Made by a program: the position numbers. This document shows positions 24,001 to 30,000 of a stretch of 64,000 nt of DNA, piece by piece. Source of the stretch: Sulfurospirillum sp. (GTDB taxonomy: Bacteria; Campylobacterota; Campylobacteria; Campylobacterales; Sulfurospirillaceae); the NCBI GenBank assembly GCA_045047115.1, contig JASFYR010000010.1, positions 85,457-149,456 on the forward strand. Direction: 5' to 3'. Every line of letters begins with the position of its first letter. Position 1 is the stretch's first letter.

Positions 24001-27000
24001 TTCTTCGATGATCCGGGATGCTCAATACTTTGGATGAAAGGCAATAAAATTGATCCTAAAAATGTAAAGATTTGGGCATATACGATGGATACCAAAAAAT
24101 GGATAGATGCAAAAAAAGCATTTTACAGCATAAGTGACTTTGAAACACCTATGCACTATGGGTTTGGCGCACACGAAAAAGATAGAAAAGGATATATTGG
24201 TTTTGACGAAATGAGATTAAGAATGTTAAGAGGTGAAAATATGACAAACCCAAAAATCAGAAGAAAGATACTACAAGAAGAAAAGAAATAAAAAAATTCT
24301 AGGCGATAGCCTAAGCTTTAGTAGAGCGTGAATTGATGAGGAATTCACTTCCGTATAAAAAGATAAACAGTAAATTCTAAGCAAAGCCTAAGCTTTAGTG
24401 TTTGCTACTTTAGTCGGAATTCATTTCCGACGCTAAAAGTAGATAAAAATAAAAAAATTCTAGGCGATAGCCTAAGCTTTAGTAGAGCGTGAATTGGCTA
24501 GGAATTCACTTCCTAGCCAAGATGACAATAAATAAAATAGGAGAAAAAATGAAAAGACCAGAACCGATAGATAAAGAGATTATCTTAGATAACACAAAGT
24601 ATATAGAATCACAAACGGATAAAAAAGGCATCATCATAGAGTGTAATGACTACTTTGCAGAGATTTCAGGCTACTCAAAAGAGGAGCTTCTTGGAGAGCC
24701 TCACAGTATTGTAAGACACCCTGATATGCCAAGAATTGCATTTAAACTTCTTTGGGAGAGAATTCAAAGTGGTCACAATCTCACTGCTGTCATCAAAAAT
24801 CTTGCGAAAGATGGAAGATACTACTGGGTATTTACACATTTTGAAATCATAAGAGACATCAATACTAAAGAGATAAAGGGGTATAGGGCATACAGAAAAG
24901 CAGTCTCTAAGCATATAGCTGATATATTACTACCGCTCTATAAAAAACTTGTTGAAATAGAAAAAGATGACGGTATGGAAGCAAGCGAAAAATACTTAAA
25001 TGAATTTTTAGCCGAAAAGGGCGATGATGTCACTATCGACAACCTAATGGAAGAGATACATAGATTTTATTAGCAGAGCAAAAAAGGATATGATTTTTGA
25101 AAGATTTACTAAAACAAATTCCTATATTTGAAAGTTTTAGCGATGATGATCTTTCTTATCTTGAAAATATTTCAACAGTAAAAATATTTGAAAAAAACAG
25201 GGTTGTCTTCTTTAAGGGAGATGACTCAAAATATCTTCACATTCTTTTAGAAGGACATATAAAGATATATAAAAACAATATAAAAGGGAATGAGGTTGTA
25301 TTGAAAATTCTCGACACACCCTCTTTGGTCGCCGAATTGGCAAATTTGGAACATATGCCATACCCATCTAGCTGTTCAACACTGATTGATTCAAAAATTT
25401 TATTGGTTGATTTTGAAAAATTTGAAAATCACTTCTTAAATAATACAAAATTTTTATTTATGTTTGTAAAGTCTTTGACAAAAACCATATTGATGCTGGA
25501 AAAAACAATCTCCTTGAATCTTACCCTGGACTCAACATCAAAAGTGGCAAAACACATATATGAAACGTTTCCTAACTCTTGTCATATGAATCACAAAATT
25601 ACAGCTTCTACACTAAATATGACTCCGGAAACTTACTCTAGAATTATAAGAAAGTTCAAAGATGAAAACTTGATAAAAGAAGAAAACGGTGAGTTCACTA
25701 TTTTAAACGGGAGCAAGCTAAGAGAATATTTTGACATATAACTAACCTTACGCACCGGGCACTTAACCCGGTACATACAAAATCTACATTCCCAAAGAAC
25801 CTATCAGAGTAGCTTTTGGGCTCACACCTTTGTCTTGTATAAACAAGAAGTCATTTCCGGGTGCTGCCGCATGGCAAGATATACAACCCACCGGCATACC
25901 TTTTGCAACCTTGCCTGCCAACTTCATACCCTTTGGATTTTTCATAATTATTCCATCCGGAGTATATTTAACCCAAAACCAATCTTTATCATCAGGGTCG
26001 TAACCCGGTCTTTTAGCCATAACTGTTATAGCTTTTAGGTATTTGGATCTATTTAAGGATACACTATCAATGCTAACCCCTTTTCCTCCGTAGTTTCTCT
26101 TTAAAACTATTAGATTGCCATCAATTTTACCCTCTAAAACTTCTCTGACTTTTCCATGTGGAGGACTACCGGTATAGAGCTTCGAAGCTTTAGAGTTAAA
26201 ACCCATCATTTCAAGTTTATTCCAAAGATTTTGTGCATACGACACATCATCCATGCTGCCAAATGGGGGCACCATTTTACCCATCGATTTTTTGTTGGTA
26301 TTTTTGTCGCTATTTGTGCCATAATCACTGCTCATGGCACAACCCGAAATTAGAAGACCGGTGGCACTTAGTGCAACGATAAAATATTTTGTATTCAAGA
26401 TAAACTCCTCATTTTGTTTTGATAAAAGCATCTTATCTATGCTGCGTGTAATAATTGTTTAGAGTTTATTGATATAATTATTTTATTGATTGACCCATAT
26501 CAATAAACTTTTAATAAAAGTAGTGTATAATTCCACAAAAATTAAATAGGAGTCAATATGTCTGATTTAAAAATCTCAAAACCAGATGATGCAAAAGAGA
26601 TAACAGTCGAAGGTCAAACAGTACCTTTTTTTGAGTATAAGATAGGTGATACTACATATATAGAATTTGACACATCAAGATGTGGTCCACCTGAGCCTAT
26701 GGTAAATGCTATGCTTGCAGTTGGACTTATAAAGGACAAAAACACAAAGGTTATCATGATAAATCACAAAAGTCCTGCCGGATTATTACCAAAAATAAAT
26801 CAAAATTACAATATCCAAGAGGCTACGACAGAAGATGGGAAAGCAAAATTGATTTTTTCATATAAAGAAGGCATGAGCGAAAAAGCTGACCTAAGTGATA
26901 AAAGTTGTGACGGATAAAAAATGGCAAAAAATCTAGCCACAGATATGGCGCCACCATTTATATTGGTGGCACACTATTTTATAGCAGGAGCTGTTTTTTA

Positions 27001-30000
27001 TGCAATTACTGCTTTTTTACTACCTTTTTATGCAAATGAAGTAAGCGGATATTTCCTCTCATCTTCTATTGCTACCCTTATGCATCTTTACTTACTCGGT
27101 TTTGTAATGATGGTAATTTTTGGTGCCATGTACCAGCTAGTCCCTGTTGTGCTAGAAATTCCAATCTTTTCAAAAGATTTTGCCTACATACAGTTTTATA
27201 TGTTTGTTGGCGGAATATTGATTTTTACATCCGGTTTAGCAGACGAAAACTTTACTCAAATTTTACCTTATGGCGCAATGCTTATGTATCTTTCTATGCT
27301 TATATTTGTAGCCAATGTATTCTTAACATACAAAAATATAATAAGATGGGATATAGTTGCAAAATTCATATTTGTATCAAATATATTTTTAACCATAGGC
27401 GTAACCATAGGCTTTATAATAGCACTAAATCTCTTATATGGCTTTTACCCTGATATATTAGGCCTTGTACAGATGCACATAGCTACGACTATATTTGGAT
27501 ATGTTATTATGACTATTATGGGAATAGGTATGATTTTGCTACCTATGTTTTCACTCTCGCACGGATTTAATCAAACAGCCATAGAAATGGCGTTTTACAC
27601 CATAATCATAGGTTTGATTCTGTTTTTATTTGGAACTTTTTTTAAATTAGATATACTGAAATTTGGTGGAATCCTGTTTTTAACAGTAGCAATCTTTTTT
27701 GCACTCTACCAAATGTATCTGATATTTTCCACTAGAATAAGAAAGCAAAATGATTTTTGGGCAAAAAATATGATGGCTTCATTTGCTACACTCATCATTT
27801 CATTTTTTATACTTTTAGCAGGGGTAATAACCAAAAATGATACATACTATCTACTTTTTGGATTTACCCTCTTCTTTGGTTTTTTTACCTTTTTTGTAGT
27901 CGGTCATATCTATAAGATACTTCCATTTTTGGTTTGGTATCAAAGATATTCTCCGTTAGTTGGAAAGATAAAAGTACCTATGTTAAACGATATGGTACAT
28001 GAAAAAGTAGCAGATACCCAGTTTTGGATTACACTTACAGGACTATTGCTGGCTATCGGCGCAATTGTCGCAAAAATTCCCTTTGTATTTCAAATAGGAA
28101 CTGTGATAATGGGCATAGGAACTCTTTTGGTGATATACAATATCTATTATACCCTTATATACGGGATAGAAGAATTAGAAAATTATAATAAAGGATTAGA
28201 AAATGGCAGTAACTGAGGAAATGGTATATGATGCTATAAAAACAGTAATAGACCCTGAGGTTGGATTTGACATCTACTCTTTGGGCTTAATTTATGGAGC
28301 AAAAGTTGAAGGAGACCATGTGCATGTAACCATGACCCTCTCAACCAGAGGTTGTCCTTTGCATGAGATGATGAAACAGTGGACAAAAGAAGCTGTGGAA
28401 AAAATCGATGGTATAAACAGTTGTGAAGTCGAGATAGTATGGGAGCCGGCGTGGAATGTCACTATGGCAAGTGATGAAGTTAAAAAAGCATTGGGAGCAT
28501 TCTGATGGCATTTCCAAAATTTTTCGATAAAGTTCCGGGAATTACAACATTTGACCCCTTGGCTCTGATTCTTGGAACAGTAGAAGACGGTATCATAAAA
28601 TTCAGATACACCCAAATAGTAAAATCAGCAGGACACAGTTGTCCAACAGTTGCAGGCGCATATCTTATGACACTAAAAGCTCTTGATGCTCTCTATCCCG
28701 ATACTCCAGCTGTTAGAGGAGATATAAAAGTTGAATTCAAAGAGGATATAGAGGATGGAGTTGCCGGTGTCATAGCAAATGTAATCTCAAACATAACGGG
28801 AGCTACAGATAAAAGTGGTTTTAAAGGATTGAACGGAAATTTTACAAGACACTCTTTGATGAAATTCAACTCAGATATAAGCGCAAGCGCAAGATTTACT
28901 AGAACTGATACAGGAAAAAGTGTAGATGTATTCTACAATCCCGGAATAATTCCTCCTCATCCTAAAATGAAAGAGTTAATGGGGTTAGTTATCACACAAA
29001 ATGCAACAGACGATCAAGTAAAAGAGTTTGGTAAACTTTGGCAAGACAGAGTCAAAAGAATACTAATAGATAATCTAAATAATGAAGAGATGATAAATAT
29101 AATATAAATTTGACTTATGTCAATAATTTTTTTTACAAATTGTGTTACACTTTGAAAGGTTTTAAAAATCTAGGGTAGATTTTTAAATAATTTTATATAT
29201 CAGATATATGATTATAGTTGTATAAATATGTATCTGATATTATCTTTCAAGGAGGAACAATACATGGATTTAAAAAAGTTAGCTGCTTCTAGTGCAGCTA
29301 TTGCGTTTGTTGCTACAACAGGGTTACTAGCAGGCACTTCAAATATGAACTTTGCAAAAGTTTATGAAAAAGAGTGTCAGGGTTGTCACGGTCCGATTCA
29401 CCAAGGTGGGGTTGGTGCAGATTTAAGACCAAAGGCTTTAAAGAAAAAAGAGTTTCATTCTCTCGTTGAAACTATATTAAGTGGTCGTCAGGGCACGGCT
29501 ATGCCATCATGGAAAGCAACATTTTCAAAAGATGATGCAGCAGGTATGGTTAATTGGTTGATGAACTGGAAAAATACAGTTACTCTAAAACTATCTCTTG
29601 CAGATGTACACAAAAGCTGGAAAAAACTGGCAAATCGTAAAATGTTGTATAAAAAATATATGAAAGCAGCTGATGTAAAAAGTGCAAAAGATATTATGTT
29701 TGCAACAGAAAGAGATGCATCTTTGGTTGATTTTATCGACTCAACAACAGGAAAAGTGCTATCTCGCCATAAAGCAGGATTTGCTGTGCATGTAACGGTA
29801 ACAAACAAAAGAATGCCAAGATATGCATATTCAATCAGTAGATCCGGAAGACTTACAATGTTCGATCTCAATGCTCCTGGTCAACCAGCCCTTGCAAGCG
29901 TTCAAGTAGGGCAAGAGTCTCGTGGTCTTGCAGTTTCACCAGATGGCAAATATGTCATGGCAGGAAACTACAATCCGGGCGGTGCTGTTTTATGTGATGC

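Follow-up and report, generated by a model that had tools for sequence, protein, structure and literature searches.

A local copy of a widespread haem-copper oxidase homologue gene set beside nirS in Sulfurospirillum, with a tentative role in the upkeep of iron centres

What might a membrane protein do that has the fold of a haem-copper oxidase (HCO) but none of its catalytic ligands, and whose gene lies just upstream of a nitrite reductase gene? This question is raised by a 64,000-nucleotide window from Sulfurospirillum sp. (contig JASFYR010000010.1), which holds a tightly coupled operon of four genes on the forward strand: g00724 (26558..26917; 119 aa, a DUF2249-like protein of TusA fold), g00725 (26921..28216; 431 aa, a three-unit, 12-helix HCO-homology membrane protein), g00726 (28203..28505; 100 aa, a DUF59/SufT-like protein) and a gene for a 200-aa FmdE-family protein (28505..29107). 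The start of the last overlaps the stop of g00726, and it is an optional member, present at 37 of 74 loci compared. The initial annotation had reported the first three genes as a cassette followed by the FmdE-like gene, and all four ORFs are indeed found. It had also called nirS (29228-30973) divergent; in the sense of transcription this does not hold, as the gene lies on the same strand as the operon, as a separate unit with its own regulator box. We conclude that the operon is one local instance of a gene set, widespread and predicted before, that accompanies nitrate, nitrite and nitric-oxide respiration.

The oxidase fold proposed earlier for g00725 is well supported. Its AlphaFold2 model (pLDDT 96.2, pTM 0.94) has the 12-helix core of three four-helix units, with a G-x7-G-x6-P motif repeated in helices II, VI and X. 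The model matches cbb3 CcoN both by Foldseek (TM 0.72-0.75) and on structural alignment (3mk7; Z 34.2, rmsd 3.1 Å over 390 residues), and cNOR NorB (4xyd, 3o0r) at Z 32.4. In Pfam, g00725 reaches COX1 at no better than E 0.0021, as had been stated, NCBIfam has no match for g00724 or g00725, and the ESM Atlas yields COX1-like or unnamed clusters only. The report that no PDB sequence matches the protein is true for a narrow profile, but a diverse profile reaches CcoN (E 4e-10).

Ligand conservation was read from an alignment of 149 diverse rows, including a subset of 130 rows below 40% identity. At the low-spin haem positions g00725 carries L53 (helix II, first) and F315 (helix X, second), and His is not among the top residues of either column across the 149 rows. 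The high-spin haem position in helix X is F313 (Tyr in 66 of 149 relatives), and the CuB/FeB position, second in helix VI, is A188 (His in 63 of 149). No His-rich column is present in helix VII of this alignment, which agrees with the earlier statement that the His pair of that helix is missing. With its ligand columns empty, g00725 has probably lost the CuB and high-spin haem sites, as first suggested.

Which histidines, then, could hold a cofactor? Four had been called invariant, and two of them are: H55 (helix II) and H186 (helix VI) occur in 149/149 rows, in 70/70 full-length locus proteins and in 17/18 added distant proteins. The other two, H18 (20/149) and H329 (47/149), are clade traits that fall to 1/130 and 29/130 in the rows below 40% identity, and H214 is found in 112/149. 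A family-wide inner metal site formed by H18, H214 and H329 was rejected because these residues are not conserved outside the clade, within which such a site is still possible. The helix X His once taken for a ligand does not occupy a ligand position; these are F313 and F315, and H329 lies at the cytoplasmic end.

Judged by register, both H55 and H186 would point into a single pocket, between units 1 and 2, that is vacant in oxidases, and there they probably bind one bis-His haem b. The proposal of a single bis-His haem is thus retained, with the pair placed on helices II and VI rather than II and X. H55 aligns with CcoN H347 (E 1e-9) and H186 only weakly with H60, the two low-spin haem ligands of that oxidase. 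The sequence of g00725 unit 1 matches that of CcoN helices 9-12 (E 1e-9). A true circular permutation of CcoN was discarded, as unit 2 scores below zero against CcoN unit 1 and helices 9-12 come out best with any four-helix unit of this type.

Many relatives may possess a second His/Tyr site that g00725 has lost. Residues H188 and Y313 co-occur in 59 of 63 cases, and on the tree 9 independent pairs include 5.2 changes in the same way and 0.0 in the opposite; with a median sign-test p of 0.06 and two control columns at 3.5 and 4.1, coupled change is suggestive only. Relatives with this pair could hold a catalytic haem, and g00725 itself might turn over NO, nitrite or nitrosothiol at a five-coordinate haem. 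Such a site would recall styrene oxide isomerase (8pnu), in which one His binds haem b at the subunit interface (PMC11374702) and whose alignment with unit 3 has a Z of 8.1. We nevertheless regard an enzymatic role as quite improbable: H188 is absent from g00725 and its 42-row clade, every CuB/FeB ligand is gone, both invariant His face one pocket in a manner that favours a closed bis-His site, and the genome already encodes two cNOR and one gNOR-like enzyme.

Conservation outside this pocket draws attention to the inner face of the membrane. The protein has an N-in/C-in topology, with K+R highest in the loops assigned inside, and among the 31 columns at least 80% conserved in the 149 rows, most polar or aromatic ones besides the two His are at cytoplasmic helix ends. 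The conserved residues of this face are Q72, P75, V76, P208, M209, F210, R272, D278, K332, P335, F336, W339, G348 and P353.

Both small partners of g00725 belong to families that handle sulfur or iron. The g00724 protein has a TusA/SirA-like fold (top matches YeeD, Z 8.4; SirA, 7.5; TusA, 7.4) and carries C42 within a CxPPxP motif and a C-terminal C117; Cys is kept by 59 of 67 loci members, and none is present in Thermus DrpA. Although it has no Pfam match of its own, 54 of 72 relatives match DUF2249 (PF10006) at E<=0.1 (best E 7.7e-6), and BLAST clustering groups it with bona fide DUF2249 proteins. The g00726 protein matches FeS_assembly_P (PF01883) at 71 bits against a cut-off of 23.5, falls under the SufT equivalog cut-off (98.8 versus 143.4 bits), and has a C51 that is invariant in 53 rows. 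DUF59 is fused to the C terminus of the membrane protein in five of the 150 best profile matches (P0153, P0190, P0221, P0236, P0250), an arrangement that is not among the named DUF59 architectures in the available part of PMC4982691. We found no fused forms of 822-2345 aa, which is weak evidence, and no DUF2249 fusions near 500 aa among the six longer matches inspected. A predicted complex of g00725, haem and g00724 scored 0.26 against a mark of 0.32, a value that argues neither way on binding.

The likeness of g00724 to YeeD, of the YeeE-YeeD thiosulfate uptake complex (rmsd 1.9 over 73 residues), might mean that g00725 transports or exports iron, nitrosyl or sulfur species, or haem, with g00724 docked inside as YeeD is on YeeE and the His pair serving as a haem transit or structural site. 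Two of the three g00725 pockets have no ligand His, conservation centres on the inner mouth, and hemN/hemA and nirDL are neighbours at some loci. PMC11218638 credits Pei et al. 2014 with linking DUF2249 to the HCO superfamily, and names N-compound export as one of the roles that it ascribes to their work. Even so, we consider transport unlikely. The YeeD match is within 1 Z of SirA and TusA and may signify only a shared fold, the fold search with g00725 gave no transporter near the oxidases, and the only conserved polar residues in mid-membrane are the two His.

The upstream DNA suggests when the operon is expressed. A Crp/Fnr (Nss-type) box, TTGAC-CCAT-ATCAA, at 26490..26503 precedes an inferred -10 hexamer, TATAAT (26526..26531, forward strand), which is unlisted in a consensus promoter scan because it has no -35 element, and an AGGAG ribosome site (26548-26552, forward strand). 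The inferred start site, near 26538, follows the first base of the box by 48 bases and its centre by about 41.5. For the Nss type, a box consensus and a spacing of 48-49 bases to the start site have been described (PMC11539149), and the predicted box has these regulon features, a TTGA-N6-TCAA core about 48 bases before the predicted start. The same box is common to the operon and a divergent cytochrome P460-like gene, and a second box (29110..29123) stands before nirS. In the whole genome, boxes lie ahead of nosZ, the g00724 operon, nirS, nor and two further units of the island, and these six belong to a set of 9 strict boxes that the genome has outside long ORFs. Across the 74 loci, 40 upstream regions contain an exact TTGA-N6-TCAA match (0.93 expected). 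The likely reader is the product of a Crp/Fnr regulator gene at 25097..25741 (forward strand); a Crp gene is present in 12 of the 74 loci.

Does the operon serve N-oxide respiration broadly, or nirS in particular? The wide spread and the cassette conservation claimed at the outset are borne out: matches at E<=1e-10 fall into 1571 50%-clusters, 91 of 201 sampled genomes in the phylum carry a member, and both partners are kept at 63 of 74 loci. Among the 78 genomes that match nor or nosZ, 70 carry the membrane-protein gene, against 21 of the 123 that do not, a tally made weaker as support because kin are not independent. The module recurs by nar, nirK, nirS, nor and nos in Thermus, rhizobia, Bacillota, Ignavibacteria and haloarchaea, and haemerythrin, DUF1858, protoglobin, Hcp, Rrf2, YgbA and NnrS genes lie near those of relatives. 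A DUF1858 gene is listed in the Bradyrhizobium diazoefficiens NnrR paper, whose available part has no identifiable homologue. A conserved tie between the partner set and N-oxide respiration, as originally suggested, is probable on these data, but the link to nirS is local rather than general. A dedicated NirS maturation factor, for example an exporter of a haem d1 precursor, would fit the adjacency to nirS, the presence of the gene in 14/14 genomes having this nirS, and the nirDL genes adjoining at 8/74 loci. This role is highly improbable, however, because in 77 of 91 carriers nothing matches this nirS at E<=1e-100, nirS is inside the fetched flanks at 4/74 loci only, and relatives elsewhere adjoin nirK, nar or nor instead. 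Specificity for NirS was rejected on the first of these counts, and specificity for Nap with 87 of 167 napA genomes carrying the gene.

Our preferred reading, to which we give a probability of roughly 40%, is that the operon forms an accessory module of N-oxide respiration that tends cytoplasmic iron/sulfur centres under nitrite or NO. A Crp/Fnr regulator of the Nss type would turn it on together with nosZ, nirS and nor. The membrane protein, probably a non-catalytic, NnrS-like oxidase cousin rather than an oxidase or NO reductase, would hold one low-spin b haem close to the outer face, with H55 and H186 as its ligands in the pocket between units 1 and 2, while its cytoplasmic face would dock g00724 and g00726. 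The haem could then couple the membrane redox state to these small thiol/iron carriers, whereby nitrosylated or oxidised iron and Fe-S centres would be reduced, scavenged or rebuilt. We favour this reading because the partners are iron/sulfur handlers, with DUF59 fused in some relatives; because NnrS, another stripped HCO relative, reportedly guards the iron pool; and because the box and the co-occurrence with nor/nosZ and nirS tie the operon to N-oxide respiration. It is weakened by the g00724 Cys, which is not universal, by DrpA, reported to be periplasmic in Thermus (PMC6282519), by a second Campylobacterota subfamily that has no DUF59, and by the 21 carriers with neither a nor nor a nosZ match. 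The electron path is also incomplete, since a haem at the outer face would lie a long way from partners in the cytoplasm and the inner side has no further invariant metal site.

The sole mutant data for any module member, which indicate regulation rather than repair, come from Thermus, where nar expression no longer depends on nitrate once drpAB is lost (PMC6282519). The membrane protein might accordingly be a sensor whose haem binds NO or nitrite, with one His displaced, or reports the redox state of the membrane. The signal would travel via the conserved cytoplasmic face to the DUF2249 protein, which would then tune the Crp/Fnr regulator, and g00725 would supply the membrane component so far missing from DrpA/DrpB. 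In T. thermophilus SG0.5JP17-16 and JL-18, drpA-drpB run into a single-unit HCO homologue, protoglobin, a three-unit homologue and DUF59, and drpAB is the front of an operon holding the latter two. The DrpB architecture also adjoins g00725 homologues at Ignavibacteria/Bacteroidota loci, a DUF2249/TusA-like gene is directly ahead of the membrane gene in both Campylobacterota subfamilies, and Crp genes are frequent neighbours. We consider sensing possible but rather unlikely. The drp phenotype was measured in strain NAR1, where a transposase lies between drpAB and the membrane gene and cuts the single-unit gene short, so that the phenotype may not need the membrane gene. Six-coordinate haem binds further ligands poorly unless one His is labile, fusions to DUF59 are more in keeping with cofactor handling than with signalling, and the regulator's box stands before this operon too.

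A broader and doubtful proposition is that the family represents a third functional use of the oxidase scaffold. It would place haem in the one pocket left vacant by every solved oxidase and NO reductase, and a switchable His/Tyr haem site, found in about 40% of relatives, repeatedly lost and absent in g00725, at the position of the oxidase binuclear centre. It would also give bacteria and archaea that lack NarXL their missing membrane link from nitrate/NO outside to the DUF2249 (DrpA/DrpB-type) and DUF59 proteins of the cytoplasm.

Our literature search found no experimental test of the module. A function for it would fill in an accessory step that is missing from accounts of denitrification and N2O respiration, and would reveal a use of the oxidase fold when the catalytic centre is gone, with a reach that extends from the 91 of 201 sampled genomes to other bacteria and haloarchaea. 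The advance made here is modest because the kind was reportedly predicted in 2014; the analysis supplies residues of interest (H55 and H186, and H188/Y313 in relatives), a predicted promoter, and Thermus strains with an intact drp operon.

How does the module compare with known systems? Relative to cbb3 CcoN and cNOR NorB, g00725 has the same fold but lacks all six canonical His in collinear register, and no subunit II or cytochrome c partner gene accompanies it. NnrS is a stripped 12-helix HCO relative that is also Crp/Fnr-controlled and tied to NO stress, like the predicted control of the g00725 operon. According to work cited in PMC11526790, it shields the iron pool from NO. That g00725 is itself NnrS was rejected: neither it nor 52 close relatives match PF05940 at E<=0.1, the hhalign probability is 1.2%, and a true NnrS (205 bits), with its His in units 1(a) and 3(b), is encoded elsewhere in the genome. 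SufT, which matures Fe-S proteins under high demand (PMC4982691, PMC8593673), shares PF01883 and one invariant Cys with g00726, which is not in a suf operon. Styrene oxide isomerase, whose haem also lies between four-helix units but is five-coordinate and catalytic, offers an analogy only, as does YeeE-YeeD (8j4c), in which a TusA-fold protein is paired with a membrane protein of another fold.

Thermus DrpA and DrpB, which PMC6282519 treats as a two-gene operon, share with the present module DUF2249 proteins, Crp-type control, which is predicted here, and an operon with a three-unit homologue and DUF59. In contrast to Drp, g00724 consists of one longer domain that bears Cys and scores under the Pfam cut-off, and the Thermus operon adds the single-unit homologue and protoglobin. 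Finally, Pei, Li, Kinch and Grishin reportedly described in 2014 (Protein Sci 23:1220) three-unit HCO-homology proteins with 12 helices, two conserved His and one predicted haem, whose genes are said to neighbour those for denitrification and NO detoxification. The initial claim of a new HCO branch is therefore not upheld: in its three units and 12 helices, its two His, and its DUF2249 and denitrification context, g00725 resembles the proteins reportedly described there.

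The four ORFs that the initial annotation described are present and coupled in the window. The genes for g00724 (a 119-aa DUF2249/TusA-like protein) and g00725 (the 431-aa membrane protein) are 3 bases apart, g00725 overlaps the DUF59 gene g00726 by 14 bases, and g00726 overlaps the FmdE-like gene by 1 base. An AlphaFold2 model of g00725 based on a 149-row alignment of diverse relatives (pLDDT 96.2, pTM 0.94) exhibits twelve long helices. When 48,161 chains were searched with this structure, haem-copper oxidases and NO reductases filled the first ten places (Z 34.2 to 23.7), and the next match reached only Z 9.2. 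The best match, cbb3 CcoN, is collinear with an rmsd of 3.1 Å over 390 residues, and Foldseek concurs. Lysine plus arginine counts averaged over the alignment place both termini of the family inside, along with the loops after helices II, IV, VI, VIII and X. We consider it unlikely that this twelve-helix protein is a transporter.

In each four-helix unit of this fold, the second helix offers two ligand positions, seven (a) and five (b) residues before a glycine. In oxidase structures, each pocket is shared by position b in one unit and position a in the unit that follows, such that 3b and 1a hold the low-spin haem and 2b and 3a the binuclear centre. Oxidases are not known to bind a cofactor in the remaining pocket, which lies between units 1 and 2. 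The CcoN and NorB proteins of this genome carry histidines at 1a, 2b, 3a and 3b and also the pair in helix VII; the ligand-position histidines of g00725 are at 1b (H55) and 2a (H186) only. Because of this register, H55 and H186 are expected to face this same unit-1/unit-2 pocket, and the simplest reading is that they hold one predicted bis-His haem. Profile alignment pairs H55 with CcoN H347 (E 1e-9), in agreement with a second comparison, and pairs H186 with CcoN H60 in a non-significant segment. Both residues are kept in 149/149 alignment rows and in all 70 full-length proteins that the fetched loci encode. Of 18 further, distant proteins, 17 keep both; a degenerate Aquificota paralogue (L122:1336-2463, minus strand) has lost the unit-1 histidine. 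H18 and H329, previously listed as invariant, are so only in close relatives (1/130 and 29/130 among rows below 40% identity), and H214 occurs in 112/149 rows. One relative (P0143) is an 862-aa tandem duplication of the entire 12-helix protein, with the two histidines retained in each copy.

Some relatives may have a second site. Position 2b (column 188) is histidine in 63/149 rows, and position 3a (column 313) is tyrosine in 59 of these versus 7 of the 86 others; no other alignment column is associated with H188 as strongly. On a FastTree tree built without these two columns, each changes 17-20 times and the two jointly 25 times. Nine independent pairs gave 5.2 concordant and 0.0 discordant changes (p ~0.06), and thus shared descent may account for the association. 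Positions 2b and 3a point into the pocket that houses the oxidase binuclear centre; the pair is possibly a second haem site in relatives outside Campylobacterota. H188 is absent throughout the 42-row clade containing g00725. We regard catalysis by g00725 as improbable.

The partner proteins are conserved as well. The g00724 model adopts the TusA fold (pLDDT 88.9; YeeD Z 8.4, SirA 7.5, TusA 7.4), and 54/72 relatives match DUF2249 weakly. Among 67 g00724-type locus proteins of 95-140 aa, C42 is present in 59 and a cysteine lies within the last eight residues in 66. In g00726, a DUF59 protein, C51 is invariant. The 74 fetched loci, mostly from Campylobacterota and several interrupted by contig ends, include a DUF2249-like gene in 70, DUF59 in 67 and both in 63; a C-terminal DUF59 fusion occurs in 5 of the best 150 profile matches listed. 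FmdE is found in 37 loci, napA in 9, nirDL in 8 and nirS in 4. In the window nirS lies 120 bases downstream of the operon on the same strand, and we judge it very improbable that the module is a NirS maturation factor. A 149-aa CopD-like membrane gene sits immediately upstream of the cassette in 18/74 loci (e.g. L043:1284-1730). Among 20 loci picked from the genome search, a second Campylobacterota subfamily places the membrane gene with Crp, haemerythrin and an 80-aa DUF2249/TusA gene, without DUF59; Hcp is near one locus and YgbA near one.

The operon resides inside a denitrification island ordered nosZ (~10650), NosL/ABC genes, PAS, Crp, the operon, nirS, haem d1 genes, norCB and another pair of oxidase-like genes. 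Directly behind the island, ORF translations reveal a citrate lyase-type gene cluster (46735-50909). The oxidase-like pair (42271-44507, plus strand) comprises a cupredoxin-like subunit II and a divergent subunit I with aspartate in helix VI where histidine is normal, has its own Crp/Fnr box upstream (42201), and matches the gNOR description given in PMC11214002. A second cNOR cluster elsewhere in the genome (G000:C24:24500-31000, L002) has Rrf2-like and TusA/YedF-like genes upstream and transposase-like ORFs downstream.

A Crp/Fnr box, TTGA-N6-TCAA, which is the Nss-type consensus used in PMC11539149, precedes the operon at 26490. To the inferred start site downstream it is 48 bases, as reported in that paper. 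The number of loose matches in the window (8 versus 3.7 expected) is weak on its own, because 5/100 shuffles reach 8. There are 24 strict matches genome-wide, and of the 9 outside long ORFs, 6 precede island units. Among 74 non-identical upstream regions (omitting 5 loci from other phyla and loci with <330 bases upstream), the exact box occurs in 40 versus 0.93 expected, a one-mismatch box occupies the same place in 17 more, and the remaining 17 have another gene directly upstream. A cytochrome P460-like gene (25784-26431, minus strand; PF16694, 25.1 bits, just below cut-off) diverges from the same box as the operon; since only 1/74 loci has one, it was probably inserted recently into the stretch that separates Crp from the cassette.

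The family was found in 91 of 201 genomes of the phylum with at least 90% completeness; among all 201, 28 have a Nor match, 69 nosZ, 14 this nirS and 167 napA. The nor and nirS counts derive from single-protein queries, which may miss divergent forms. It is present in 70/78 genomes with nor or nosZ versus 21/123 without, although these counts are not independent because one genus gives 45 of the 91 carriers. Nor matches occur in 20/22 genomes having two or more family matches. Of the napA genomes, 87/167 carry the family; genus g13 has napA in 24/25 genomes and the family in 0/25. Stops are listed within the best match of G030, G041, G049 and G166 (1 TAA or 2 TAG), where the match perhaps overruns the gene end. 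A Bacillota sample yielded the family in 7/201 genomes, with DUF59 and DUF2249-like neighbours. In addition, 143 plasmid records match, and neighbourhoods were read in 7. An Ensifer plasmid has the order norCBQD-hemN-DUF2249-homologue-DUF2249-DUF59-nnrS-nirK and an Azospirillum plasmid nor-like pair-DUF2249-homologue-haemerythrin-hemA, and haloarchaeal plasmids place the homologue close to DUF2249 and nirK or haemerythrin.

In Thermus SG0.5JP17-16 and JL-18, the run nar-drpA-drpB-single-unit homologue-protoglobin-homologue-DUF59 is unbroken. By inference from the Thermus drp phenotype described in PMC6282519, the g00725 module might be a sensor. However, in T. thermophilus NAR1, the strain of the published drpAB work, a plasmid-borne transposase (L124:6721-7976) breaks the drp operon after drpB and truncates the single-unit homologue, whereas other Thermus strains have the unbroken six-gene run. 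This insertion weakens the argument, and sensing is a doubtful reading, if less so than transport.

Our best reading, to which we assign a probability of roughly 0.4, is that the operon encodes a predicted membrane haem hub, wherein haem-bearing g00725 would serve cytoplasmic iron/sulfur carriers during NO and nitrite load. We favour it because of the partner set (DUF59, haemerythrin, DUF1858, globin, Hcp and Rrf2), the DUF59 fusion and the NnrS precedent; its weak step is the missing inner cofactor. In the N. labii proteome table, near-consecutive accessions for a 114-aa hypothetical protein, a 102-aa DUF59 protein, a DUF1858 protein and FmdE were detected, and the accession between the first two was not. 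Accession order and length suggest that these are operon orthologues.

Three-unit homologues with twelve helices, two conserved histidines and one haem have reportedly been described by Pei and colleagues. Searches of the open-licence literature, outside which subscription papers mostly fall, yielded no experiments on the membrane protein. An association of DUF2249 with the haem-copper oxidase superfamily is noted in PMC11218638, which cites Pei et al. 2014. The cassette is a real, conserved member of a predicted kind, and its function is likewise predicted. To this picture we add a corrected ligand pair with its pocket and the optional His/Tyr site, of which the pocket and the His/Tyr pair may already be given by Pei et al. 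2014, together with a conserved promoter and two Campylobacterota subfamilies.
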